A stretch of DNA of 32,000 nt, taken from Cereibacter sphaeroides 2.4.1 (GTDB lineage Bacteria > Pseudomonadota > Alphaproteobacteria > Rhodobacterales > Rhodobacteraceae). Position numbers and translations under genes: made by a program. Location of the stretch: the NCBI RefSeq assembly GCF_000012905.2, contig NC_007494.2, positions 750,001 through 782,000 on the forward strand, given 5' to 3'. Positions 1 through 30,400 of this stretch are shown one piece after another; position 1 is the stretch's first letter; every line of letters starts with the position of its first letter. The notes under the pieces were generated by a model. The model saw only the letters and a list, made by a program, of their open reading frames with translations. It did not search any database and had not been told where the DNA came from.

Positions 1-1
1 G

Positions 2-226
2 CGCTGCAGTTTAGTATTTGCTGTCCCGCTGAACCGCGATCCAGGAACGCTTGTTGAAATTGGCCTTGCCATTGCGGCTGGCACGCCGGTCGTTACCTAC
101 GATCCGCGGCAAGAGAACAATAATACGATGGTGATCTGCGGCAGCGACGCCTACTCAGATGACTTGGACCAGTGCTTGAACTCGACGTTCGAACTTCTCG
201 CCAAACTGCGGGAGCAAGCGAAATGA
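2..226 (+). CDS. Nucleoside 2-deoxyribosyltransferase-like (NDT/DNPH1 fold) protein; only the C-terminal 74 codons are in the window
   Basis: Frame 2 is open from the window edge to TGA 224-226, and it is missing from the ORF track because it runs off the edge. The translation ...VFAVPLNRDPGTLVEIGLAIAAGTPVVTYDPRQENNNTMVICG... carries the D-x-G-T-x-x-E-x-G-x-A motif with the conserved Glu typical of this fold. Its stop overlaps the next start (ATGA at 223-226). Confidence 0.55.
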   Translation, partial: RCSLVFAVPLNRDPGTLVEIGLAIAAGTPVVTYDPRQENNNTMVICGSDAYSDDLDQCLNSTFELLAKLREQAK

Positions 227-846
227 GCTTCGCGCTATTAATGGCATCTGGCGGGTTGGACTCGACAACAGTTGCATACTGGCTCACCGAAAGGGGGGTA
301 CAATTTATTCCGGTCTTCTTCGACTACGGGCAGCACTGCGTGGAGACCGAGTGGGAAACACTTAAGGAGGTACTGCCAGCATCGGCTGCACATCCAGAAA
401 GAAATGATATCTCCGACCTTTTTAGGGGATCGAAGTCAAGGTTGATAACAGAGGCTGACCTTTGGAATGAAGAGGTGAAGGATGAAGATCTTTACGTGCC
501 TTACCGAACTCTTCTATTCTATTCTGCAGCTGCGGCACGTGCCCAGACACTGGGAGCGTTTGAGGTTTACACCGGCTTTATCAACAGCAACCGCGCTAAG
601 GAGATCGACTGTACGGCCGAGTTCATGAACAAGCTCGACGCGCTTACTGACTCGGTTGGTCCAGTCCGGTTCTTGTCACCGTTTCGCTTCTGGTCCAAGT
701 CAGAAGTCGCAAAGGAATCTATTCGACTGGGAGTTCCAATTGGGCGCACCTTCTCCTGCCAAGCTGCGAGCCTGATGCCTTGTGGCGCTTGCCCTAACTG
801 CGTCGAACGTCTAGCAGCGCTTCGAGAAACAGGGTTACTGGCATGA
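223..846 (+). CDS. QueC-like PP-loop ATPase (7-cyano-7-deazaguanine synthase family)
   Basis: I place the start at ATG 223 (MSFALLMASGGLDSTT...) with GGGAG 9 nt upstream, not at the GTG 172 used by the track. The protein has the SGGLDST PP-loop, FDYGQ and YVPYRTLLF (QueC VPxRN region). A C-terminal Cys cluster SCQAASLMPCGACPNCVER (C-x7-C-x2-C-x2-C) matches the QueC zinc site pattern. Confidence 0.85.
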   Translation: MSFALLMASGGLDSTTVAYWLTERGVQFIPVFFDYGQHCVETEWETLKEVLPASAAHPERNDISDLFRGSKSRLITEADLWNEEVKDEDLYVPYRTLLFYSAAAARAQTLGAFEVYTGFINSNRAKEIDCTAEFMNKLDALTDSVGPVRFLSPFRFWSKSEVAKESIRLGVPIGRTFSCQAASLMPCGACPNCVERLAALRETGLLA

Positions 847-1508
847 GCTCGATGGCTATAGACAACGACGCGGTGGAAATTCTCATTGCTGCACGGCGGG
901 TTGCAAACTTTGCGTGTCTCCAGGGCGTCCCTGCCGATTCGCGCCACCCTCGCGCGTGTTATCAGCACATGGGTGCGATCCTCGTCGACACAACGTTACA
1001 GGCTGGGCTGAATTACGCAAATGTGGTGCGGCCCAGAGTTACGCGTGCACTTGCGCTGTTTCCAGAAGCGACGACGATTGGCGCCCTCATAGAGATTGTT
1101 GAATCTGGCAAGAGCGCAGCGATTTTAAACTGGCAGCATCCGTTAAAGATATCAAGATTCGAGAGGATTGTAAATTTCTTACATCGCAACGATGTTCGAG
1201 ACTCGAAGGAACTTCGAAGAAGGCTTTCGAATAAAGATTTTTGTGCTTTACTTCAAGATATCCACGGAGTGGGGCCAAAAACGGTGGACTACATGGCGTG
1301 CTTGGTTGGCGTTGAGTCTATTGCGGTAGATCGACACATAAGAAGCTTTGCCCAAGAAGTTGGCATACTGGATAAAGACTATTCCTTCCTGAAACATGTG
1401 TTTTGTGCAGCCGCGGATCTACTCGCTATATCGAGACGAGAATTCGATGCATGGGTTTGGCGTCACGAAGTTGAGCGCAAGTCACCACAAATGGCCTTTT
1501 CGTTCTAG
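843..1508 (+). CDS. HhH-GPD superfamily DNA glycosylase-like protein (EndoIII/OGG-like, no Fe-S cluster motif)
   Basis: ATG 843 overlaps the QueC-like stop (ATGA). The helix-hairpin-helix LLQDIHGVGPKTVDYMACLVGVESIAVDRHIRSFA has a Lys in GVGPKT and an Asp 17 residues later. This mirrors the EndoIII-type GVGRKTA...VDTH catalytic pair. There is no C-terminal 4-Cys cluster. Confidence 0.65.
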   Translation: MSSMAIDNDAVEILIAARRVANFACLQGVPADSRHPRACYQHMGAILVDTTLQAGLNYANVVRPRVTRALALFPEATTIGALIEIVESGKSAAILNWQHPLKISRFERIVNFLHRNDVRDSKELRRRLSNKDFCALLQDIHGVGPKTVDYMACLVGVESIAVDRHIRSFAQEVGILDKDYSFLKHVFCAAADLLAISRREFDAWVWRHEVERKSPQMAFSF

Positions 1509-1725
1509 AGCTGGAGCTGACCTGTTTCATTCCGATCTGCTGTTGTTTTTCCTTATCTAGATCAGACGCACGTGAATGTTCGCGGAAGGCAGCGACTAGC
1601 ACCCGATACGAGCTTAAGAATTGGCCGTTTTGCCGACATCCTGACCAAGCTCAGCATTTTGCTCGAAGGTTCGCCCCGATACGTCTTCAAGGAAGGTTCA
1701 GCTTTCGCCCAATAGCGATGGTAGA

Positions 1726-1742
1726 GGAGCGAGCTTCGCTCC
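1726..1742. terminator. Short GC stem-loop in the convergent spacer, a possible terminator for the minus-strand operon
   Basis: GGAGCGA-GCT-TCGCTCC forms a 7-bp stem with a 3-nt loop, 26 nt past the dGTPase-like stop. No U-tract follows. Confidence 0.25.
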
Positions 1743-1767
1743 CCCGCAGATCTTACTTCTTGATCTG

Positions 1768-3189
1768 CTAGATGGGCTTAAACATGCTTTCCGCGACATC
1801 TGACTTGAGCCGAGCCCAGAACTCTACGGCATACCTATCCGTCATTCCTGCGACAAAGTCGCAAATGTGACGCGCCTGCAAATCCTTATCCCCACCGGCC
1901 TCCTGAACCCGCTTGCGCACGTCGTCGGGCATAAGCAGATGTCCGCTCTTCTTTTCCAGCGCCTCGAATATTTCCCCCACCAACTCGGTACCACGGTACT
2001 CGCCGAGCTTAACCCGGTTCGAGTAGATAGTTGACAGGAAAGTATATTGCTTCAGGATTTCCACTTTAATGCGCGTCTTCTTATCTAGCGCAGCTCGTGA
2101 GAGAGCAGGAAACTCTTCGTTTATTTCTAGTTCAACAGCGTTCATGAATTCGTGAACCAGTTCGGACGATAGCTTCATCCTCCTCCCTGCGTCCATGTTC
2201 ACCGCACGAGACGCCTTCATCGCGTTGATAAAACTTGAAAGATCCTTATTCCGTCGTTCGAACGGAAAGTCTTGCTCTCTGCTTTCGTCCACAGCAAAGA
2301 TGTCCCCGAAAAGAGCAACCAAGGTCGCCAAGACTTCTTGTGCGGTGATCTTCTCGCTGCAATCTTCCGCCAGCTGCTCAGTTGCCTTTTCCGCAACCCT
2401 CTTCAGCAAATCATCATCTGTAGCCAGAATTGAGGCAGGCGTTAGGAAACCTGCTTTAAGACTGTCTTCAAGATCGTAAACAGAATAAGCGATGTCGTCT
2501 GCAATATCCATTATTGCACATTCAACGGTCTTAAACTTGACGCCAGCCGGAAGGGCTTTCCCTCCCAAAACTCTTCTTTTTATCTCTGCGACAATCTTAG
2601 CTTCGGAGGCGTAGTACCCTTTTTGCGGACCATCACTACCGAAGCGTTCTTTATCTATCTCGTTGTCGTATTTCAGCACGGCAGCGAGTGTCCGAAAACA
2701 CAAGTTCATCCCGGCGCGCTCGTCGCCATCTACAGGCGCTTTGTACTTCGCCTTCTTTTCCAAGCGGCTTAAGATACGCAGCGTCTGAGCGTTCCCCTCG
2801 AATCCGCCGCGCATCTCCATCTTAGTGTTGAGTGCGCGCTCACCATTGTGGCCGAATGGGGGATGTCCGATGTCGTGGACAAGACCTGCCGCTGCGCAGA
2901 GTCGGCTGTCGATCCGCCGACCTCCCAGTTTTTCCGCATATACATAGTTCAAACGGTCTGCGATGCCTTCGGCGATTTGTGAGACCTCAAGTGAATGCGT
3001 CAGACGGTTTCTAAAGAAGTCGGACTCGTGTCCCGGAAATACCTGCGTTTTACCTTGCAGCCTTCTGAAGCTAGCGCTGTGGATGATCCTACCGAAATCC
3101 CTGACAACGGGCGGTCTCCAAGGGTCAGATGCCGAGTCCTCGCCGTTCTGGCGTAGCCAATCGTCAGATGTGTACATGTTCAACATCAT
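1768..3189 (-). CDS. dGTP triphosphohydrolase-like HD-domain phosphohydrolase (Dgt/SAMHD1-type dNTPase)
   Basis: The ORF has 473 codons. It contains RDFGRIIHSASFRRLQGKTQVF, the HD motifs RNRLTHSLEVSQIA and GLVHDIGHPPFGH, and the C-terminal ICDFVAGMTDRYA, all hallmarks of the dGTPase family. Confidence 0.9.
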   Translation of the reverse strand: MMLNMYTSDDWLRQNGEDSASDPWRPPVVRDFGRIIHSASFRRLQGKTQVFPGHESDFFRNRLTHSLEVSQIAEGIADRLNYVYAEKLGGRRIDSRLCAAAGLVHDIGHPPFGHNGERALNTKMEMRGGFEGNAQTLRILSRLEKKAKYKAPVDGDERAGMNLCFRTLAAVLKYDNEIDKERFGSDGPQKGYYASEAKIVAEIKRRVLGGKALPAGVKFKTVECAIMDIADDIAYSVYDLEDSLKAGFLTPASILATDDDLLKRVAEKATEQLAEDCSEKITAQEVLATLVALFGDIFAVDESREQDFPFERRNKDLSSFINAMKASRAVNMDAGRRMKLSSELVHEFMNAVELEINEEFPALSRAALDKKTRIKVEILKQYTFLSTIYSNRVKLGEYRGTELVGEIFEALEKKSGHLLMPDDVRKRVQEAGGDKDLQARHICDFVAGMTDRYAVEFWARLKSDVAESMFKPI

Positions 3190-3207
3190 TACTGCTACCG
3201 CAAATGC

Positions 3208-3369
3208 TCACGCTCGGGCCGAGCTGTTCAGCGCGCGCTCTTGCTGAAGTGCCGCTTTTCTTTCTTCTTGCTCACGCTTCATTTGCAGGCCCAGCCGTAC
3301 GGCTTCACGAAGGCTTTCCTGCCTCGCTTCTGCAGCTTCGCGAGCTTCTACTATCGCTTGATATGCCAT
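3208..3369 (-). CDS. 53-aa highly charged, predicted all-helical peptide of unknown function
   Basis: I place the start at ATG 3369 (MAYQAIVEAREAAEARQESLREAVRLGLQMKREQEERKAALQQ...), preceded by GAGGAGGA at good spacing. It sits 83 nt after the upstream gene and 18 nt before the dGTPase-like ATG. I recognise no family. Confidence 0.45.
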   Translation of the reverse strand: MAYQAIVEAREAAEARQESLREAVRLGLQMKREQEERKAALQQERALNSSARA

Positions 3370-3452
3370 GCTTGTCCTCCTCTGGCCATATTTCATGATA
3401 AGGAGCGATCCATCGTCCTACTCCCTGCTTTAGAATGCCCCGGCGTCAACTG

Positions 3453-4856
3453 CTAACGAGGACGCACGCGCGCAGGCACCCCAGCCTTTCGCAAAACATC
3501 GGCTAAATGGCTGGTTAGGCCCACCTTGCGATCCAGCATGATACCGGTTTGCGGCTTCAAGTCGCGGGCCAAAGACCTAAGCACCTCCAGCCCTTGAGAG
3601 ACATCGAAATCAAGCCACTCGTCTGCATCACCTGGCACAATGATGTCACCGTCGGACGTACTAGATCCGCGATGAAGTTGGACGATCCATAGCTCTGAGC
3701 CATCAAAGACCCATTCGAACCGACAAGCACCAAGCGCACAAGCGAGCCGGCCGTGTAGATCATTTACCTTTGCTAAGATCTCATCGGGAATTGGCTCGGG
3801 ATCCGCAAGCCCAACCATGAGGCGCTCTCCGGTTCCTTGGATCCCTTCTACAACGAGGCTCCCGCTCGACGTCTCTATAGCCGCGCCCGACCACTGCGCC
3901 GCAACACCCTGCTGCGATAGCACCGAGGAGATTGCGGTACCGTCAGGATCCTCGCGTTGGAGCAAGGCAAAAGGATCTCGCCACCCGCGCGCGGTGGTGA
4001 ACTTCCCGGGCACTTGCTCTCGCGGGCTTGTTCTTATCCACACTTCTGCAAGATCCGTAGATCGGCCAAAGGAGAAGGGCGCGATGCGTCGACCTATCAC
4101 CGTTGTCCTAGGAACTGGAAAGCCTTTAATCTCCGCAACCAGAAGTCCGTACACCTTGTCGCCGATCATTCGGCTAAAATCATTGGGCCACTCGATCTTC
4201 ACCAAGTCCCTTGGTAACGAATCCTCAGATAGTTCCCAGAAGATTACGTTGTCCATCTTCCAGCCTCGTGGTCTCGGATGTAGACTGAATTCAAGACGCC
4301 CATTCTGCCCATGTGAGAAGTCGGCCTCCACTCCATAGACGATTTTGAAAAGCTGTATAGCCATTGAGGTTGGGAGCCGGGCGAACCCTGGCTGCTCCAC
4401 ACCGCGCGGCGTCATGTCAGGGCGAAACTCCACTATGTCGCCGATCACCACGCCAGAAACGCCACCATCCGAAACATCAATCGTTTCGTTCACAATCGTG
4501 AACGCGCCCTCCTTGGCCATGCGCTCAACAGCAGCGACCGCTGCAGCCGCGTTGTCAATGCCGTAGATAAAGTCGCGGCTTTGGCTTTGGTGAGCATTAA
4601 AGCTACGAATGTTCACCGTCCTTTCGGAGCTTCGCTCGAAAAGAGCCTGTATGGCATCAGCAACAGATTCGAAGCGATGATTAGGTTCAATGCCAGAAAT
4701 TCGGCAAAACTGCAGCAAAGGACCTTCGACTGCCGGCGCGAAGCTCACAAACTGCGCCACATTGCAGGTTGCGGCCAAGCGATCCAACGTCTCATCTTTT
4801 CTGAAGACTGCCCCTTCAGGTTGATCAGAACTAGTTTGCCCAGCACCCAACTTCAT
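3453..4856 (-). CDS. PEP-utilising-enzyme-type phosphotransferase-like protein (PPDK_N-type ATP-grasp plus a C-terminal phosphohistidine swivel motif)
   Basis: ATG 4856 follows AAGGA. Residues ~230-400 follow the PPDK_N / PEP synthase / rifampicin phosphotransferase ATP-grasp pattern: GDKVYGLLVAEIKGFPVP, WIRTSPREQVPGKFTT, VLSQQGVAAQWSGAAI, EGIQGTGERLMVGLADPE, RFEWVFDGSELWIVQLH. Residues ~437-465, GIMLDRKVGLTSHLADVLRKAGVPARV, match the swivel-domain GG-x-TSH-x-A-x-x-x-R-x-x-G-x-P motif, with the His at codon 450 (nt 3507-3509). Confidence 0.7.
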   Translation of the reverse strand: MKLGAGQTSSDQPEGAVFRKDETLDRLAATCNVAQFVSFAPAVEGPLLQFCRISGIEPNHRFESVADAIQALFERSSERTVNIRSFNAHQSQSRDFIYGIDNAAAAVAAVERMAKEGAFTIVNETIDVSDGGVSGVVIGDIVEFRPDMTPRGVEQPGFARLPTSMAIQLFKIVYGVEADFSHGQNGRLEFSLHPRPRGWKMDNVIFWELSEDSLPRDLVKIEWPNDFSRMIGDKVYGLLVAEIKGFPVPRTTVIGRRIAPFSFGRSTDLAEVWIRTSPREQVPGKFTTARGWRDPFALLQREDPDGTAISSVLSQQGVAAQWSGAAIETSSGSLVVEGIQGTGERLMVGLADPEPIPDEILAKVNDLHGRLACALGACRFEWVFDGSELWIVQLHRGSSTSDGDIIVPGDADEWLDFDVSQGLEVLRSLARDLKPQTGIMLDRKVGLTSHLADVLRKAGVPARVRPR

Positions 4857-4907
4857 TTTCCTTCGGCTCTACAGCGCTCCGACGCACCATACGTGAGCGA
4901 GGTGTGC

Positions 4908-4922
4908 ATCCTCTCCGAGGAT
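4908..4922. promoter_or_regulatory. Inverted repeat upstream of the phosphotransferase-like gene, a possible operator
   Basis: ATCCTC-TCC-GAGGAT has perfect 6-bp arms and lies 52-66 nt upstream of ATG 4856 in the AT-richer leader. Confidence 0.2.
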
Positions 4923-5279
4923 TTCGCAACTTCCAAATGACCTTAACTCGAACCGGCGTAGTCAGGCCAACATAGACCTTTGAGCAGCCTGCACTTGGGG
5001 GCATCCAGCAGCTTCGCCAGGCACGGCGATCGCTTCCTTGAACATCCACGCGCGCGGCCCGTGAAAAAATTCCCGTGTTTTCTCTTATGGTTGCGGATCT
5101 TTCTCCGGTAGGCGGCATGAGGGACGGACTCGCGCAGCTGCTCATGTTCGCTGCTCAACTACACTAAGAGGAGACGCGCTCGTCACAGTGGCTCTGGCAT
5201 CCGTCCCGTCGTTGTATATGGGTCGTTCATCAGTGCAGGCCGGCTGTGGCCCTCGGTCCCGCAAGACAGGCATAGCAGC

Positions 5280-5858
5280 TTATAGCGGGCTCGGACCCTC
5301 AACGCCTCGGCGCGAGGGCCGTTCTGAACAGAACGACTGCATGTCTGAGCTGCCCGGACGTGCAGCCAAGAACATCCTGACCTCCCTCGCGCTCCGAAGC
5401 CGAATGATGGCCTTATCGCTGGGCGCACCAGCCACCAGCCGCTCGATCTGAGCCCGGCTGGTGATCCTCGTGTTCCAGATCCAGCGGTAGAAGGACCAGT
5501 CGAATTGCTCGAGGCAGCCGTCCGGTAGATCGGGACGCGTGCGCCCTCGATACTGAAGCGAGCGCAGGAACACGCGCCAGAGCCGGACATGGATCGGCAC
5601 ATCCAGCCAGATCAGCGTGTCGCAGCGTGCCAGCCGCTCCGGCCATGTCGCGGAGTGTCCGCCCTCGAAGATCCACTCCTTGCGCGCGTGAACTTCCTGG
5701 CACAGGCGGGTCTTCTCCTCGCGCGACCGCTCGACCCATCCGGTCGACCAGTGGATATGGTCGATGTGAACCACCGGCAGCCCAGTGCGCCTGCCGATCT
5801 CCCGGGCCAAGGTGGATTTGCCCGAGCCGGGCTGTCCGACGATCATGACTCGTTTCAT
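5280..5858 (-). CDS. P-loop kinase-fold protein, FlaR / DNA topology modulation protein-like (adenylate-kinase-related)
   Basis: I place the start at ATG 5858 (MKRVMIVGQPGSGKSTLAREIG...) with AGGAGG upstream. The Walker A motif and the collinear pattern ...WIFEGGHS...LIWLDVP...RTRPDLPDGC...FYRWIWN... resemble FlaR-type proteins as I recall them. The last ~28 codons look like a non-native tail. Confidence 0.75.
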   Translation of the reverse strand: MKRVMIVGQPGSGKSTLAREIGRRTGLPVVHIDHIHWSTGWVERSREEKTRLCQEVHARKEWIFEGGHSATWPERLARCDTLIWLDVPIHVRLWRVFLRSLQYRGRTRPDLPDGCLEQFDWSFYRWIWNTRITSRAQIERLVAGAPSDKAIIRLRSAREVRMFLAARPGSSDMQSFCSERPSRRGVEGPSPL

Positions 5859-6217
5859 GAGGGCCTCCTGCCAGTTCGCGAAAGCCCACCAGCGTAGCAT
5901 CGGAAGCTCCGTGCCTCAACCGCCTGTGCCTTGGCGGCGGCGGTGACCGGAGGAAGTCCCCTGCCCTGCCCACTCAGCATGGTCACTGCGGGGCCGCCTC
6001 GGCGAACTCGGGCAGACCAGGGCATCGTCTCGGCCGAGGGTGCCGGCCGGCGCAACGATTCCCGCTCCATGCGAAATCCATCGCCACGCCGGGCGGAAGG
6101 CCGCGTGCCCCCGCCGAGAGGCGCGGGACGGGACTCGAGCGGCCCGATTAGGGTCGGGATCGGTGATGGTCTACGCCTGCCGGGATCGCGCATGGCGTAG
6201 CTCCGAGCCTTGCAGCT

Positions 6218-8277: not shown

Positions 8278-9140
8278 TCAGCTGCGCTTTACAGGGTGCA
8301 GCCTGCGTTTGCAGGCACTTGGCCCCGACTCATAATCGTGGGGTCGGGGGTTCAAGTCCCCTCTCGCCACCATCGCCCCCCCCACAATCTGTTGGTCGAT
8401 GCCGAGCAGCCGCTCCATGTTGCCGCGGACCTCGACCAGGACGTCGCCGGTCTCAACCTTGGGATGGACAGTGATCTCGGTGATGATCCGGCGCAGGGCC
8501 TCGACCGAGGTCGCGTCGAACGTGCCGTCGCCCCGCTGCAGCGCGGCCGAAAGATCGGCGATGGCGCGCGTATAGGCAGCCGTCGCCTGCGGATGCAGCT
8601 CCACCACATTGTCCTCGCTCGAGGCGATCTCGAGCTCGCTCCGCGCCATCTCTGCGGCCTGCTTGGCCTGCAGCACCCGGGCGTCGGCTTCCTCGCCCTC
8701 AATCAGGCCACGCGCCATCATGTCCACCAGCCGCATGTAGCGGGCTCGGCTGTCCGCCGCGGCCCGTTCCAGCCGTGCCCGGTCGCGGCGCGCCGTCTCC
8801 GTCAGGCGCCGGCGCTCCTCGGCATAGACCCGGACGAACTCCTTCAGATAGTCCGGGCGGTCGAGTTGCGCCCGAAGGCGAAGGAAGATCGCCTCCTCGA
8901 TCTTCTCGAGCCGATAGCGCGCCTTGTTCTCGCAGCTTCCGCTCTCGTTCGCCGTGCTGCACCGGATCCGGATCGCCTCGCCGCAACGGTCGTGGATGCT
9001 CATACCGCCCCCGCAGCAGGCGCACCGGATCAGGCCTGAGAAAGGACGGGGCGGCGCCTTGGTGATATTGCCCATCCGCACCGCCTCCGCCTGCTGCGCG
9101 TGGCGCCGGACGGCGGCCGCGAAGAGCGGCCGGGGCACGG
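8278..9140 (-). pseudogene. Large serine recombinase, C-terminal part only (zinc ribbon plus coiled coil); the catalytic resolvase domain is missing
   Basis: The segment ...PPRPFSGLIRCACCGGGMSIHDRCGEAIRIRCSTANESGSCENKARYRLEKIEEAIF... is a recombinase zinc beta-ribbon, followed by a long coiled coil. The N-terminal 230 codons of the track ORF (8278-9789) are antisense to the portal gene. The last ~35 codons (...MVARGDLNPRPHDYES...) are the antisense translation of the tRNA-like fragment. Confidence 0.6.
8324..8372 (+). tRNA. tRNA-Met(CAT)-like 3' fragment (anticodon arm to CCA), probably an attachment-site remnant rather than a functional gene
   Basis: The anticodon arm is CCCGA-CTCATAA-TCGTG with one C-T mismatch. 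It is followed by GGGTC, the T arm GGGGG-TTCAAGT-CCCCT, and CTCGCCACCA. No complementary 5' acceptor strand or D arm lies upstream, and the acceptor/discriminator is one nt short of canonical. Confidence 0.45.
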
Positions 9141-9149
9141 GGCGGGCGA

Positions 9150-9972
9150 GCTCGAGCTGATCGACCTCGTGCGCCAGTCCGGCTGCAGCGTGCTCCGCGC
9201 CGGCCGGGACCGGTTCTACGACTTCGAGGACGGCGCGGGCCTCCGCCGCCGCGCGCCTGCCCGCGCCATGATCCATCTGCGCTACATGGCCGAGGACGGC
9301 TGGACGGGGCGCAGCCCGCTCGAGGTCGCGGCCGAGAGCGTGGGCCTCGCGCTCGCAGGCCAGGAGTCGGCGGCCCGCGCGGCCTCGGGCGTCACCGCCC
9401 GTGCCGTGATCCGGCTCCGCGACGATTACGAGGATGACGAGGCGCGCGTCCGCAGCGCCCGCCGGGTGGCGGCCGCGCTCCGCGCGCCGGAGGTCGAGGG
9501 CTTCCCGATCCTCGGCGAGGGCGAGGATGTGAAGACGCTCGACATGAAGGCGGCCGATCAGGAACTCCTCGGCAGCCGCAAGTTCGACCGCGAGCAGATC
9601 GCGGCGATCTACCGGGTGCCGCCGGCGAAGCTCCAGATGATGGAATACGGGGTGAAGGCCAACGGCGAGCAGCAGGCCATCGACTATCTCACCGACTGTC
9701 TCCTGCATTGGGCGAAGCAGGTCGAGGACCAGCTGGCGCTCGGCGTGCTGACCGAGGCCGAGCGCCGGGCGGGCCTCTTCTTCCGCCACGACTTCGGCGC
9801 CCTGCTCCGGCCCACGACGCGCGAGCGGTACGAAGCCCTCGCCAAGGCGGTGGGCGGCCCGATCCTGACCCCGAACGAGGCCCGGCGGATCGACGGCTAC
9901 GATCCCATCGAGGGCGGCGACCGGCTGAACCCGGCGCCGAACATGACCCGCAGCGAGGAGACAGATCCATGA
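9150..9972 (+). pseudogene. Phage portal protein, HK97 family, N-terminally truncated
   Basis: The segment ...IHLRYMAEDGWTGRSPLEVAAESVGLALAGQE...LGSRKFDREQIAAIYRVPPAKLQMM... follows the HK97-type portal pattern. About 130 N-terminal residues and any credible start are missing. The stop overlaps the protease ATG (ATGA at 9969-9972). Confidence 0.6.
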
Positions 9973-24241: not shown

Positions 24242-24417
24242 AAGCAGTTCTCAATTTGTTGCGATGGGCAGCTTTACGCGCATCCGCAGGGCGAATTCTC
24301 TGAACCACCCCGTCCTGCCGATGCCTGGGAAGATGTTCCGCCCCGGCGACCCTCTCCTCCCGCACACGATGGCGCCCGCCGCCGTGGCCAGACGAACCGG
24401 GTGGCGGGGACAAAGCT

Positions 24418-27400
24418 GTGTGGATCAGACATTCGCGTAAGGCGGCCGCTGCCGCGGCCTTCGGTGCAACCCTCGTCCCGGCCCTCCTGTGGCTTCTGAC
24501 CGGCCTCGCTCAGGCGCAGGATGCGGTCGACTACGACTGGCGCGTCCAGCTCGACGGCTCGGCCGGCCTCGCCATCGCGGCAGGCGGCGTGGCGCTCTAC
24601 AAGGTGGATGTGCAGAACACGGGCACCGCGGGCGCCCCGCCGACGCGGATCGAGACCAACATCCCCGCCAACACGATCTTCCGCCCGGACCTGTCCTCGG
24701 CCAGCTGCGCCGTGGTGGGCAGCCTCGTCGACTGCGCCATTCCCGCCCTCGCCGAGGACGCATCCACCGTCGTGGACGTGGCGTTCGAGACGCTGGACGA
24801 AGGCACCTTCGTCCTCTTCGCCCGCGTCCCCGACACCGATGCGCTGGCCGGGAACAACTACGAGGAAGTCACCACGACCGTGGAGCGCGGCGCGGACATC
24901 TCGGTCTCGCTGACCGCCGATGCGACCGTGCCCTCGGGCGGCACGGTGCATTATGAAGTGCGGGTCGAGAACGAGGGGCCCCACACGTCCGAGGCGTTCG
25001 AGGTCGAATTCCCCGTTCCCACGGGCGTCGTCGACATGACGGGTCCCGCCGGCTGCACGCGGTCCGGCGGCACCTTCCTCTGCCGGGTGGCGGACCCTCT
25101 CGCCGTGGGCGACAGCCTCGCCTTCGACTTCGCCGGTCAGGTGACGGCCGCATCCAATTCGACCGTGGCCGCCTCGGTCGCGATCATGGGCCAGCAGCCG
25201 GCCGATGCCGATTCCACCAACAACCTCGCCACGGCCAGCACCTCCGTCACCGCGGGCAGCGACCTGCGCATCGTGAAGTCGCGCACGCCCTCGGGCACCA
25301 TTCTCGTGGGTGACGAACTGGTCTTCATCCTGTCGCCCAGCTATCGCGGCGACGCGCCCGGCGGGACCGTGACGGTGACGGATCCACTGCCCGCGGCCTA
25401 CAGCTTCGTCTCGGTTCAGGCGGACGCGGGCTGGACCTGCGGCGAGAGCGGCGGCACCGTGACCTGCGCCCGCCCTGCCCCCACCACCGGCGCGGGCGAG
25501 GACGTGTCCATAGGCGAGATCCGCATCACCGCCCGCGCGGTCGATCCGGGAACGCCCCTCAACATCGCGACGGTCTCCGCCGCCGACACCACCGATCCGT
25601 TCCCGGGCAACAACAGCTCGTCGGTGAGCGTGACTATCGAGGCGCCCTTCGTCGATCTCGCCCTGTCCAAATCGGCGCCCTCTCCGGCCCTCGCCGTGAG
25701 CGGCAGCCCCTTCGATTACAGGATCGGCGTGACGAACCGCGGCAATGCGGGCTTCGACGGCACCGTGCGGGTGACGGATGCGGTGCCCGTGGGCCTCACG
25801 ATCGAGTCTGTGACAGGCTCGGGCTGGAGCTGTGCGCCCCTGCCCGTCACGGGCCCCGCCGACCTCGTCTGCGACCGGCCCTATGACGGGGCGGCGCCGC
25901 TTGCGGCCGGGGGCCGCGTGCCGGATCTGGTGCTGACCGCGGTCGCCCTGCAGGACGGGCCGGTGCGCAACACGGCTGGCGTCGAGACCGTCGACGGCAC
26001 GCTCGAGGACACGACGCCGGGCAACAACTCGGGCGGCGCCGACGTGACGGTGAGCCAACCGCCGTTCGCCGCCGACATCGGCCTGACCAAGAGCACTGCC
26101 GCCACCGCGATTGCGGGCGAGCCGCAGACCTTCGAGGTCGAGATCACCAACTTCGGCCCCACCGAGGCCGCGAACGTGCGCTTCAGCGATCCGCTGACCG
26201 GTCTCGCGAACGGCGCGACCTCGGGCGCGGGCAACGGCCTCGTGAGCATCTCGGTCGAGCCCTTCGCGGCGACGGGGGCCAGCTGCGGCGGTGCAACGAC
26301 CGGCGCGACCTCGGTCACGGCGAGCTGCTCCTTCGACACGCTCCCCGTCTGCACCCCCGGCCTCGACTGCCCGCGGATCACCCTCGTGACCACCCCGGGC
26401 GGCAATGCGGGCGCGCGGACCAACACCGCGACCGTCGTCTCGCAGACGACGGCCGACCCGGCCTCGGCCAACAACAGCGCGAGCGCGAGCTTCACCGTCG
26501 AACCCCGGGCCGACGTCACGCTCGAGAAGCTGGCCAACCCCGATCCCGTCGCCGTGGGCCAGTCGCTGAACTATGTGCTGACGGCGAAGAACGTGGCGAA
26601 CGGCCTCAGCCAGGCCGAGAACGTGACGGTTTCCGACACGCTGCCCTCGGGGCTCGTGTTCCTGTCGGCCAGCCCCTCCACGGGCAGCTGCGCCACGCAG
26701 CCGGCGGCCGGCAGCGCCACCTCGGGCGGCAACAATCAGGTGGTGTGCAACCTCGGCACCATCAACAACGGCTCGCAGCAGACGGTGACGATCGTCGTGC
26801 GGCCGCTTCTGTCGCTGCTGGAATCGACCCTCGTCAACCGGGCCGAGGTCACCACCAGCACGACCGAGACCGATGAGACCAACAACGCGGCCGAGGCTTC
26901 GGTCGACGTGACCTTCCCCCGCTTCGACCTGCTGATCGCCAAGACCGACACGGTCGATCCGGTGACGGTGGGCGACGAGACGATCTATCGCATCCTCGTG
27001 ACGAACAACGGCCCCTCGGCGGCGGAGAATGTGATCGTCACCGACACGCTTCCCGCGACGCGGCTGAGCTTCGTGCAGGCCAGCGCCCCGGCGGACGGGT
27101 CCTGCGGCACCACGCCCGCGGCGGGCGCCATCGGCGGTCAGGTGATCTGCAGCGTGCCCTATCTCGCCTCGGGCGAGAGCCGCACCTTCGAGGTGACGAT
27201 GCGGGCCGAGGCCAAGGGCTCGGTCACCAACACGGCCTCGGTGACGGCCGACCGCGCCGGCGACTTCGAGAGCCGCACCGACAACAACACGGCGACGCAG
27301 AACACGACGCTGCGCACCCGGGTGGACGTGCAGGTGGCCAGCAAGACGCCCTCGGCGCCGTCGGTGCCGCTGCGGGAGGATTTCACCTTCGACGTGGTGA

Positions 27401-30400
27401 TCCGCAACGCCAGCGACCCGCGCTATTCCGAGGCCGACAATGTCGTCTTCACCGACAGCCTGCCCTCGGGAATGGTGCTGACGGGCGCGCCGAGCGTGAC
27501 GATGGCGTCCGGCACGGCCAGCGCGACGAGCTGCACCGGCACGGCCGGCGGCACGGCGGTCAGCTGCTCCTTCGGCACGCTCTCGCCCGGAGCCGAGGCG
27601 GTGGTCACCCTGCCCGTCCGAGTCACGGCGATCACGAGCACGCCGCAGAGCTTCACCAACAGCGCAAGCGTCACGACCGACTCCGACGACCGCGTGCCGT
27701 CGAACAACAGCAACAGCGGCTCGGTCGAGATCACCGGCTCGTCCGTCGCGGGCGCGGTCTGGCGCGACTTCAACGAGGACGGCACACGCGCCGGGACCGA
27801 CACCGGCCTTGGGGGCATCGCCATCCAGCTGAGCGGAACCGACCTCACCGGCGCCCCGGTTACCCGGACCACCACCACCGACGCGAGCGGCGGCTATAGC
27901 TTCGGCCTTCTGGCCGAAGGCACCTATACGATCACCCGCACCGGCAGCCTCCCCGCCCGCCACGAGGATCTGGCGGCGCTGGTCCCGGCAAGCGGCTCGG
28001 GCACCGCGTCGAGCGCCACTGTCATCGGCTCGGTGGCGATCGGCCCGGACGAGGATCTGACCGGCTACGACTTCACCGTGCGGCCGATCCCGACCGTGGG
28101 CATCGCCAAGCGCGTGTCCTCGCAGCCGGCGCTGCGGGCCGATGGCGCGTTCCGCGTGAGCTTCGCCTTCTCGGTGCGCAACTTCAGCGTCGAGCCGGTG
28201 CAGGGCCTGACCGTGACCGACATGCTTCAGGGCGGTCTGCCCGGCTTCGGCACCTACAACCCGGACCTGTCCGCCCTGCAACCGGGGGAATATGGCCTCG
28301 TCTCGGCGCCCGGCGGCAGCTGCGGTGGCCTGAACGCGGGCTACACCGGCGCGGGCGCGACCGAGCTCGTCTCGGGCGGCACCCTCGCCGCGGGGGCAGG
28401 CTGCTCCATCACCCTCACGCTGCAGGTGCGGCCCGAGATCCCCCTGCCCTATTCCGCGTCGCCGCGCTACCGGAACCAGGCGCGGCTGGATGCCGTGGGC
28501 CAGCTCTCGGGCGAGCCCGTGACCGATCTCTCCGACAATGGCTCGAACCCCGACCCGAACGGGAACGGCTATGCCAACGACCCGGGCGAGGACGATCCGA
28601 CGCCGGTCAATGTCACCTATGCCCCCGCCATCGCGGTGGTGAAGACGGCAGACACCTCGGGCTTCTCCGATCCGATCGCGCCCGGAGACCCGATCCTCTT
28701 CAGCTTCGCGGTGACCAACACCGGCAACGTGCCGCTGGCCGATGTGACGCTGGCCGATCCGATGCTGCCCGCCGCCTTCGACGGGCTGACCGTCCCGGTC
28801 CTGCTGCCGGGCGAGACGGACACGTCCACCTTCGCGGCCACCTACCTGCTCACCGCCGCCGACATCGACGCGGGCCGTGTCGAGAACCAGGCCACCGCCA
28901 CCGGCACCTGGACGCAAGGCTCGGGCGGCGCTCCGGTGACGGTCAGCGACCTCTCCGGCACGACCACCGCCAACAACACGCCGACGACGGTGCAGATCGG
29001 AGCGATCTCGCTCGTGAAGACCGCCGATGAGAGCGGCCTCTCCTCGCCGCCGCTGGCGGGCGAGACCATCCGCTACAGCTTCACCGTGACCAACGGCGGC
29101 GTGGCCCCCCTCACCGACGTGACGCTCACCGATGCGGTGCCGGGCGTGCAGGTGACGGGCGGGCCGATCTCGCTGGCAGGCGGGGCTTCGGACACGACGA
29201 GCTTCACCGCGACCTATGAGCTGACCCAGGCCGACGTCGATGCGGGCAGCTTCACCAACGACGCGAGCGTGACGGGCTTCGTTCAGGTTCAGGGCGGCGG
29301 CCGGGTGCCGGTCACGGCCGATGACAGCGTGACCACGCCACTCGCGCTTGCGCCCGCCATCACCCTGGTGAAGGAGGTCGACACGACCGGCCTCTCCTCT
29401 CCGGCGGCGGTGGGTGACGTGCTCGCCTACAGCTTCACCGTGACGAACGCGGGCAACGTGACGCTTACCGACGTGACCGTGACCGACGACAGCCTTCCGG
29501 GTCTCGTGCTGACGGGCGGGCCGATCGCGACCCTCGCGCCGGGCGACAGCGACAGCACCACCTTCACCGCCTCCTACAGCCTGAAGCAGGAGGATCTCGA
29601 CCGCGGCTTCGTCGAGAACACCGCACTGGCGACCGGCACCTATGCCGGGCCCGGCGGCACGCCCGCCGAAGTGACCGACAGGTCCGGGACGGACACCTCC
29701 AACGACACGCCCACCGTGGCGACCGTGCCCCCTGCCCCGGCCATCACGCTGGTCAAGGCGGTGGATGCGAGCGGCATCTCCAGCCCCGCGGCGGTCGGCG
29801 AGCAGCTCAGCTACAGCTTCACGGTGACGAACACCGGCAACGTGACGCTGACGGATGTGACGGTCACGGACACGAGCCTGCCGGGCCTCGTCCTGTCGGG
29901 CGGGCCGATCACCCTCGCGCCGGGAGCGAGCGACGCTGCCACCTTCACCGCCACCTATGCGCTGAAGCAGGCCGACATCGACCGCGGGTTTGTCGAAAAC
30001 ACGGCGCTCGTCACCGGGACCCATGTCGACGGGAACGGCGACAAGACCGAGGTCGAGGACGTCTCCGGCACCGACGCCGCGAACGACCTTCCGACCCGCA
30101 GCGACGTCGAGGCCGCGCCCGCCATCGCGCTGGTGAAGACCGTCGACCTCTCGGCCCTCTCGAGCCCGGTCGCGGCGGGCGACGTGCTAAGCTACGGCTT
30201 CGCCGTGACCAACACGGGCAACGTCACGCTCACGAATGTGACCGTGACCGACGACAGCCTCGCGGATCTCGTGCTGACGGGCGGCCCCATCGCCTCGCTC
30301 GCGCCGAACGCCACCGACAGCACGAGCTACAGCGCGAGCTACACGCTGACCCAGGCCGACATCGACCGCGGCTTCGTCGAGAACACGGCGCTTTCCACCG

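Follow-up and report, generated by a model that had tools for sequence, protein, structure and literature searches.

Three adjacent minus-strand genes in a stretch of 32,000 nucleotides of Cereibacter sphaeroides 2.4.1 (NC_007494.2, positions 750,001 to 782,000; hereafter the window, whose own numbering is used throughout) form one conserved, co-inherited module that travels as cargo of mobile elements. They encode a predicted phosphotransferase of the ATP-grasp type, which we call protein A, a peptide of 53 aa and a deoxyguanosine triphosphatase (dGTPase) of the anti-phage type. We propose, with moderate confidence, that this trio is a mobile-element-borne defence acting on the nucleotide pool, in which the dGTPase would be the effector, the peptide its partner, and A a phosphotransferase for a nucleoside or nucleotide ligand. 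Depletion of the nucleotide pool is an antiviral strategy in bacteria and animals, as exemplified by dGTPases and SAMHD1. The known part of the system is the dGTPase-based depletion of nucleotides, and the new part its accessory components, A and the peptide. An earlier reading of this DNA from its letters and open reading frames (ORFs), hereafter the sequence-only reading, knew of no described defence or metabolic system pairing the two enzymes, and our literature search agrees: it turned up no report of a dGTPase paired with an ATP-grasp or phosphoenolpyruvate (PEP)-utilising enzyme, nor any description of the A family or of the peptide, and Clover was the only multi-gene dGTPase system found described.

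Conservation and co-inheritance of the three genes

Loci were drawn from a sample of one genome per GTDB species, as the best 80 of 219 matches to A. In all 25 species-level loci with an A of at least 55% identity to that of the window, A, the peptide gene and the dGTPase gene follow one another in this order on one strand. They are spread over several alphaproteobacterial families, and sampling from the side of the peptide extends the layout into Betaproteobacteria, the same eight-gene layout, which takes in the QueC-like module described below, being found in Roseateles, Ramlibacter and metagenomes. In a neighbour-joining tree, the A proteins encoded by the 25 loci fall into a single clade, and the pairwise identities of A and of the dGTPase run closely in parallel (r = 0.91 over 231 pairs, computed from raw identities and uncorrected for species phylogeny). 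The sequence-only reading had described three minus-strand genes separated by 83 and 18 nt, and the ORF coordinates match it exactly (3370-3452 between A and the peptide and 3190-3207 between the peptide and the dGTPase, with the 53-aa start); it had also made its proposal depend on conserved synteny between the phosphotransferase and dGTPase families, which is what the 25 loci display. Its pairing of the two families holds for the trio, but proteins of the A family also occur with two other sets of partners, and its three-gene unit, although conserved, is not self-contained, since 21 of the 25 loci adjoin a module encoding a PfkB–nucleoside 2-deoxyribosyltransferase (NDT) fusion, a QueC-like and an OGG-like protein.

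By its pattern of conservation, the small ORF is a real, conserved gene and not a chance ORF. It occupies the gap of 231-333 nt between A and the dGTPase in every locus with A followed by dGTPase (27 loci, 20 distinct sequences), and related peptide genes ahead of dGTPases encode 50-58 aa. The peptide of the window is charged and helical and begins MAYQAIVEAREAAEARQESLREAVRLG, and the consensus of the family reads M-A-Y-x-A-V-x-E-A-R-x-x-A-E...R-E-A-x-R-L, followed by a tail rich in Lys and Glu. The mechanically called ORF has 62 aa (3208..3396, minus strand), and the 53-aa form, which starts at its second Met, has the Shine-Dalgarno-like sequence GAGGAGGA ahead of its start. Differences among the peptide genes cluster at third codon positions, with a synonymous share of 0.35 for the coding frame and of 0.08 for the two alternative frames. 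A 100% identical 53-aa protein (P0279) is annotated in public Rhodobacter/Cereibacter sphaeroides genomes, on 219 contigs, and the peptide accounts for 40 clusters in a collection of 5.8 billion proteins.

A six-frame profile search of all loci found the peptide only beside dGTPase genes. Because its gene immediately precedes that of the dGTPase also in loci with A on the opposite strand (L066, L071, L075, L087) or with A missing (one locus), the peptide belongs with the dGTPase and not with A; its earlier description as a member of the trio is upheld in every locus with A followed by dGTPase, but what it tracks is the dGTPase and not the phosphotransferase. The A proteins of the four loci just named belong to other lineages, placed among differently partnered relatives, and they too adjoin a peptide and a dGTPase, in other orientations, which suggests from sequence comparison that the association of A with the peptide–dGTPase pair arose more than once. 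Across the sampled loci of this dGTPase clade, A adjoins in all but one.

The 473-aa protein is confirmed by profile searches as an intact dGTPase of the anti-phage type, as the sequence-only reading had assigned it. It matched Pfam HD (1.3e-13) and HD_assoc (1.2e-19), the PADLOC dGTPase model (2.4e-120), NCBIfam NF041026 (anti-phage deoxyguanosine triphosphatase; 405.8 bits, cut-off 400) and TIGR01353 (370.8 bits), and its residues H65, H105-D106, H109, H114, E117 and D231 are intact and invariant across 16 relatives. Its closest solved structure is 9p8w (7e-54), and the 8-chain 'DNTP triphosphohydrolase' entries 9p8s-v match it more weakly (4e-32); drawing on the Clover paper (PMC12265719), we take 9p8w to be probably SpdGTPase and 9p8s-v to be probably CloA. 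Only three of 72,556 plasmids encode a dGTPase with 55% identity or more to it, the next-best plasmid proteins, ~30-33% identical, being classical annotated anti-phage dGTPases, and this fall in identity from at least 55% to ~33% sets the dGTPase of the window apart as a distinct clade. dGTPases of 40-48% identity have neither the peptide nor A nearby, several of these contigs being short.

Architecture and partners of protein A

Clustered at 90% identity, the A family makes up more than 1,800 clusters, every one of them named 'hypothetical', and it has 630 representatives of 50%-identity clusters (E <= 1e-3), in two architectures of ~455 and ~670 aa. Searches against Pfam, NCBIfam, PADLOC, PHROGs and PDB sequences, for which the sequence of A alone and two profiles served as queries, returned nothing usable. 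As judged from the structure models and a profile alignment, A appears to be laid out as an ATP-grasp-like module, then a minimal PPDK_N-like ATP-grasp, and then a compact His swivel (Table 1). The AlphaFold2 (AF2) model of full-length A, built on 49 homologues (pLDDT 89.8), gave 111 PDB matches in Foldseek at E <= 1e-3, headed by PPDK 1kbl (E 1.7e-5 over 468 columns, TMq 0.35) and followed by about a hundred ATP-grasp ligases; the 50 matches listed consist of PPDK, of ligases of the Ddl and VanA types and of further ATP-grasp enzymes.

For the profile comparisons, a shallow alignment of 49 close homologues (A1) and a deeper one of 69 diverse sequences with a mean column identity of 33% (A3) were used. 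With A3, hhalign aligned residues 333-467 of A collinearly with residues 278-455 of E. coli PpsA (probability 86%, E 4.6e-6); the C-terminal half as a whole (219-467) aligned with PpsA 10-438 (probability 80%, E 1.4e-5). The stretch RFE381W..DG..WIVQ393 of A lands on the metal-binding DIEW..DG..FIVQ of PpsA, and GLTSH450 on its GGRTCH421, which contains the catalytic His. E381 and Q393 are invariant in A3, while H450, the histidine of GLTSH (codon at 3507-3509), does not vary in A1 and shows a conservation of at least 90% in A3. A swivel phospho-His domain with the G-x-T-S/C-H motif is thus found in A, the Pfam PEP-utilizers model being unmatched. With the shallow A1, just the 26-residue His motif aligned with PpsA, at 2.5% probability, and Pfam PPDK_N was matched by only 2 of 49 family members (E 0.13). 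The combination of ATP-grasp and swivel His holds for A as remote homology and fold, below the threshold of Pfam membership. What the sequence-only reading had assigned to the first gene is borne out in this sense, by structure (PPDK 1kbl) and profile (PpsA, 86%) only; that reading had recognised the C-terminal ATP-grasp and swivel but overlooked a second, N-terminal ATP-grasp-like module.

Residues 1-220, modelled separately by AF2 (pLDDT 86.7), matched RimK, Ddl, DcsG, PsnB and LysX at E ~3e-5 over ~210 columns; all 38 matches at E <= 1e-3 were ATP-grasp enzymes, with synapsin next at 1.3e-3, so that Foldseek finds the ATP-grasp fold with both the full-length and the N-terminal model. The invariant residues of this module in A3 are K20, N32, R84, E124, R187 and E189, and the spacing R84...S134-G135...E189 parallels R275...S323-G324...E381 of the second module. 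hhalign found no sequence-level match between the N-module and PpsA, and it is the Foldseek matches and the similar motif spacing only that suggest a tandem of ATP-grasp modules in A. An acceptor domain, either of the PEP/pyruvate TIM-barrel or of the rifampicin type, is absent from A (Pfam PEP-utilizers_C unmatched): the protein ends 17 residues beyond H450, and its other 215 residues fold ATP-grasp-like. The large fusion proteins of A, such as the 1137-aa protein of L072, contain no Pfam domain usable as a Rosetta stone.

Two further neighbourhoods of A recur among related loci (L026-L084). In ~32 loci, A is accompanied by DUF7002, by a fusion of P-loop-kinase and adenylosuccinate-synthetase-like parts that matches a phage PurZ-type PHROG (2.3e-68), and by a small YfbR-like HD protein that matches a phage dNMP-phosphatase PHROG (4.6e-63). 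In at least 12 others, an NDT-like DUF4406 domain is fused to the N-terminus of A or encoded just upstream, together with a ~780-aa AAA+ ATPase; this DUF4406–A fusion resembles the PfkB-kinase–NDT fusion of the module adjacent to the trio. PADLOC 2.0 matched no component of either neighbourhood except for AAA+-type hits (IetA, TRIP13) to the ATPase. To judge by these similarities, each partner set of A would act on deoxynucleosides or deoxynucleotides. Among 50,697 isolate phage genomes no homologue of A was found, for which reason a place of A in a phage DNA-modification pathway was rejected; 11 IMG/VR contigs have one, mainly of the AAA-context type.

Proposed function, precedents and alternatives

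We infer the enzymatic activity of A and its acceptor, the role of the peptide and the defence phenotype, and envisage the following mechanism. The HD-domain dGTPase would be the effector, as expected from the established biochemistry of its family, and would hydrolyse dGTP, and perhaps other dNTPs, to the deoxynucleoside and triphosphate. The peptide, in view of its strict adjacency to the dGTPase gene, would be the dedicated partner of this enzyme, either a subunit or a brake. A would be a new kind of enzyme resembling PPDK and PEP synthase. Its C-terminal ATP-grasp would load a phosphate from ATP onto the swivel His450, which would pass it on to a nucleoside or nucleotide held in the N-terminal ATP-grasp-like module; it is the architecture of A, its NDT fusions and its partner sets that point to an acceptor of this kind. 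The ligand of the N-module would be either the product of the dGTPase or an allosteric regulator, and the activity of the dGTPase would thereby be coupled to the ATP status and the nucleotide pool of the cell.

The proposed system has relatives among known ones. SpdGTPase of Shewanella putrefaciens, reported as a stand-alone anti-phage dGTPase (Tal et al. 2022, as cited in PMC12265719), belongs to the same HD + HD_assoc family, whose catalytic and metal-binding residues are kept in the protein of the window. However, the clade of the window always has the peptide gene upstream and nearly always A alongside, and for that reason its dGTPase is not a single-gene system. Clover consists of the dNTPase CloA and the nucleotidyltransferase CloB, and p3diT from the accessory enzyme restrains the dGTPase, which dTTP activates (PMC12265719). 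The likeness is that a second enzyme, one that handles nucleotides, is encoded beside an effector of the dGTPase family, and Clover is a precedent for small-molecule control of such an effector, since the product of its accessory enzyme restrains its dGTPase. In contrast to Clover, the accessory protein here is an ATP-grasp/His-swivel protein and not a nucleotidyltransferase, there is an extra peptide, and the dGTPase is nearer to 9p8w than to the CloA-like 9p8s-v; the Clover pairing is not found in the island, which contains no nucleotidyltransferase according to the ORF list, Pfam and the C. sphaeroides loci. As for A, a T-S-H swivel and, more tentatively, a preceding PPDK_N-type ATP-grasp link it with PPDK, PEP synthase, rifampicin phosphotransferase and HpeHI (PMC4844700, PMC12167813). 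Unlike the PEP-utilising dikinases, A accommodates its ATP-grasp and swivel in ~250 aa, against ~450, has an added N-terminal ATP-grasp-like module, and occurs among nucleotide enzymes and not those of carbon metabolism. HpeHI, together with VadK (see below), also demonstrates that truncated or split kinases of the PPDK/RPH type exist.

The control of toxic nucleotide-depleting effectors is a current question, to which this locus offers a second solution, different from that of Clover. If A phosphorylates nucleosides or nucleotides through its swivel His, the mechanism of PPDK and PEP synthase would reach into nucleotide chemistry, and, if true, the function of A would explain three recurring gene neighbourhoods. 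That A embodies new enzymology is a realistic minority possibility. In its boldest form, which we put forward tentatively and as a good deal less probable than the general proposal, A would be a new class of dikinase, in which a His swivel between two ATP-grasp sites phosphorylates a deoxynucleoside or deoxynucleotide, and would be the core of at least three nucleotide-centred immune systems: one with the peptide and dGTPase, one with DUF7002, the kinase–PurZ-like ligase and the HD dNMP phosphatase, and one with the NDT-like fusion and the AAA+ ATPase. The product formed in the system of the window would control the peptide-regulated dGTPase or derive from the product of that enzyme, in cooperation with the QueC-like/PfkB–NDT/OGG-like module.

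Several points weigh against our proposal. Most loci of the A family are without any dGTPase, and the plasmid pTT14-5 of Roseomonas mucosa carries a diverged peptide and a 56%-identical dGTPase, with RmrA-like and AbiJ-like flanks, and no A, so that A is not obligatory. Related stand-alone dGTPases are reported to defend alone (Tal et al. 2022, as cited in PMC12265719), the peptide could be an unrelated small protein of the dGTPase, and the parallel divergence of A and dGTPase is, as said, uncorrected for shared species history. With regard to A itself, no Pfam PPDK_N or PEP-utilizers match was obtained at threshold and HMMER found no match to PDB sequences, and its link with PPDK therefore consists of one profile–sequence comparison and of Foldseek matches with E ~1e-5 and low TM-scores (0.35-0.49); moreover, hhalign of the N-terminal against the C-terminal half gave no signal of internal duplication.

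The best-surviving alternative, although in our judgement an unlikely one, is that A is a protein-directed regulatory His kinase, which would be autophosphorylated on His450, would bind or phosphorylate partner proteins and would be gated by ATP or by an infection cue. Its model is VadK (Rv1127c) of Mycobacterium tuberculosis, a truncated, PPDK-derived protein that autophosphorylates on its catalytic His, acts through interactions with partner enzymes, regulates the methylcitrate cycle and no longer has a role in central carbon metabolism (bioRxiv 10.1101/2025.10.30.685616). Besides this precedent, two traits of A favour such a reading: no domain for a small-molecule acceptor like those of PPDK or RPH can be recognised in it, and it stands constant beside three alternative sets of enzymes that degrade or convert nucleotides, as would a sensor with swappable effectors. 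VadK is not known to have a second ATP-grasp module. Against the reading, the N-terminal module of A has a highly conserved ATP-grasp-like pocket lined by K, N, R and E residues that never vary, as is commoner for a ligand-binding or catalytic site than for a protein-docking surface, NDT-like nucleoside-binding domains are fused straight onto A, and no phospho-acceptor residue has been identified on the dGTPase or the peptide.

The adjacent QueC-like module

In the window, a second operon is convergent with the trio. Across related loci this operon encodes a ~120-aa protein, the PfkB–NDT fusion, a QueC-like ATP-pyrophosphatase and an OGG-like glycosylase, with variants adding a nitroreductase-like or an Mrr-type gene; on the plasmid pCC1099_2 a single strand carries all eight genes. 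The edge of the window cuts the fusion gene, whose remaining part is 66% identical in tblastn to residues 368-435 of a Mesorhizobium PfkB–NDT orthologue, and the complete gene is present in the C. sphaeroides loci L185-L187. The QueC-like gene likely starts at the ATG at 223, overlapping the stop codon upstream (ATGA), and the OGG-like gene is kept beside it in related loci, where the orthologues match Pfam Ogg-HhH. An operon with a PfkB–Nuc_deoxyrib_tr fusion is the hallmark of 'Cluster 4' QueC proteins, and its full layout is found in L001-L010 and L185-L187; the C-terminal Cys motif of Cluster 4 has an approximate fit only in the QueC-like protein of the window, judged by eye.

A 2026 survey found a PfkB–NDT neighbour for 89% of Cluster 4 QueC proteins and guessed their role as purine salvage; it links Cluster 4 neither to dGTPases nor to A, and the neighbours that it lists for 20% or more of the genomes include no HD enzyme (PMC13329287), from which it follows that the QueC module usually occurs without the trio. 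The converse is rare; L011 and L016 have A, peptide and dGTPase and no such module within 6-8 kb. The location of the module on prophages, integrase islands and plasmids, beside defence genes, suggests an immune role instead of purine salvage, and links this unexplained Cluster 4/PfkB–NDT module to mobile defence islands. The genes at 2-1508 also recall the modules around two other QueC-like proteins, Cap9 of type IV CBASS, which comes with OGG, and QatC of Qat, but there is no CD-NTase, TGT, QatA or QatD at this locus.

The constancy of this neighbour raises the possibility, which we rate a little lower than that of a regulatory kinase, that the trio and the module are one pathway that makes or polices a non-canonical deoxynucleoside or deoxynucleotide of the 7-deazapurine type. 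The dGTPase would sanitise an analogue triphosphate or provide deoxyguanosine for a base exchange carried out by the NDT. Rephosphorylation would fall to PfkB and A, and the glycosylase would work on DNA; the role of the analogue would be to poison or to mark phage DNA. A joint pathway would account for the presence of the module in 21 of the 25 loci and in the independently sampled Roseateles and Ramlibacter loci, for the single-strand arrangement on pCC1099_2 and the position of A between the two operons in L075, and for the Mrr-type or nitroreductase-like genes of some variants, and the PurZ-like ligase and small HD protein beside A elsewhere recall phage Z-genome clusters. Nevertheless, the Cluster 4 module is mostly without an HD enzyme (PMC13329287), L011 and L016 have the trio without it, the island contains no TGT/DpdA, QueD or QueE, and A is missing from isolate phage genomes; furthermore, the QueC-like enzymes of defence systems are reported to modify protein N-termini and not to build bases, and the ~120-aa proteins start with MG.. 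or MSGGGG... The least probable reading, that independent defence genes merely share a hot spot, with the dGTPase and small ORF self-sufficient and A either a metabolic enzyme or a one-gene system without any tie to them, would suit the reported protection by stand-alone dGTPases, the peptide–dGTPase pair without A, the many A genes without a dGTPase and the island-like string of genes in L099, but three findings speak against it. In 25 of 25 species-level genomes, A and the dGTPase gene are strict neighbours on one strand, across a conserved gap of 231-333 nt; the A proteins of these loci are a single clade and diverge in parallel with the dGTPase; and A has apparently been re-associated independently with the peptide–dGTPase pair in other arrangements.

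The ~111-128-aa proteins that head the PfkB–NDT/QueC operon (L187:14475-14852; L005:8271-8633; L021:4421-4756; here outside the window, just left of base 1) have, after the start just mentioned, a Gly-rich tail and a small beta-rich domain. Since partner proteins in Qat and type IV CBASS are reported to have their glycine N-termini modified by the QueC-like enzymes of those systems, the Gly N-termini of these proteins suggest, by analogy, that they may be deazaguanylation substrates. In L099, a metagenomic contig, a DUF3644/PADLOC PDC-S19 candidate (4597-5943) lies between the QueC/PfkB–NDT/OGG module and a classical dGTPase, all on one strand. This contig was rejected as proof that the QueC module needs a dGTPase, given the intervening PDC-S19 candidate and the classical type of the dGTPase, and it may be simply a defence island.

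Gene layout and mobile setting

The coordinates of the trio, of the modules of A and of the neighbouring genes are collected in Table 1. PADLOC 2.0 recognises only the dGTPase, QueC and OGG pieces of the island.

Table 1. Features of the window, with strand and basis of assignment.
Feature	Position	Strand	Basis or remark
Protein A	3453..4856	-	467 aa, ORF list
A residues ~16-215, N-terminal ATP-grasp-like module	4212..4811	-	AF2 + Foldseek
A residues ~220-400, probable PPDK_N/PEP-synthase-type ATP-grasp (K234, R275, E381, Q393)	3657..4199	-	hhalign vs PpsA
A residues ~403-467, compact swivel (PEP-utilisers-like) with GLTSH	3456..3650	-	Alignment to PpsA GGRTCH421
Peptide gene	3208..3369	-	53 aa from second Met (at 3369)
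dGTPase	1768..3189	-	473 aa, HD + HD_assoc, anti-phage dGTPase type
PfkB–NDT fusion, 3' end (74 codons)	2..226	+	tblastn; window edge cuts gene
QueC-like ATP-pyrophosphatase ('Cluster 4' type)	223..846	+	Pfam QueC 2.1e-32, PADLOC QueC 9.3e-25
OGG-like helix-hairpin-helix glycosylase homologue, 221 aa	843..1508	+	PADLOC OGG 2.2e-6
Truncated serine recombinase ORF	8278..9789	-	Zinc-ribbon part only

The low-GC island noticed in the sequence-only reading is evident in the base composition, guanine plus cytosine making up 50-57% over positions 1-5000 and 64-75% of the window past 5500. In C. sphaeroides genomes the island is flanked on one side by genes for phage capsid, portal, S49 protease and holin, and on the other by genes for endolysin, methyltransferase and holin, and it lies next to the truncated serine recombinase; because of these flanking phage genes, the window appears to sit in a prophage-like region of C. 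sphaeroides. In Mesorhizobium, the island is cargo of an integrase/AlpA island adjoining guaA, and rhizobial plasmids also carry it. Defence-type neighbours across the loci are AbiJ-like, RmrA-like and CARF-like.

Upstream of A and on the same strand, at 5280-5900, an ORF of 206 aa resembles P-loop nucleoside monophosphate kinases and matches the 'DNA topology modulation protein' model at 171 bits, under the cut-off of 215, its GC content of 0.64 being intermediate. It was rejected as a fourth member of the module, since it recurs in the C. sphaeroides loci only and has no counterpart in the loci from other taxa. An Rfam scan of positions 1-6000 found no RNA elements, and a scan for promoters and terminators was uninformative. 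Farther along the window, a 1916-aa ORF (24274-30024, minus strand) and neighbouring ORFs of 585, 468, 464 and 342 aa have no Pfam match at E <= 1e-4, and may encode phage tail or host-specificity proteins.

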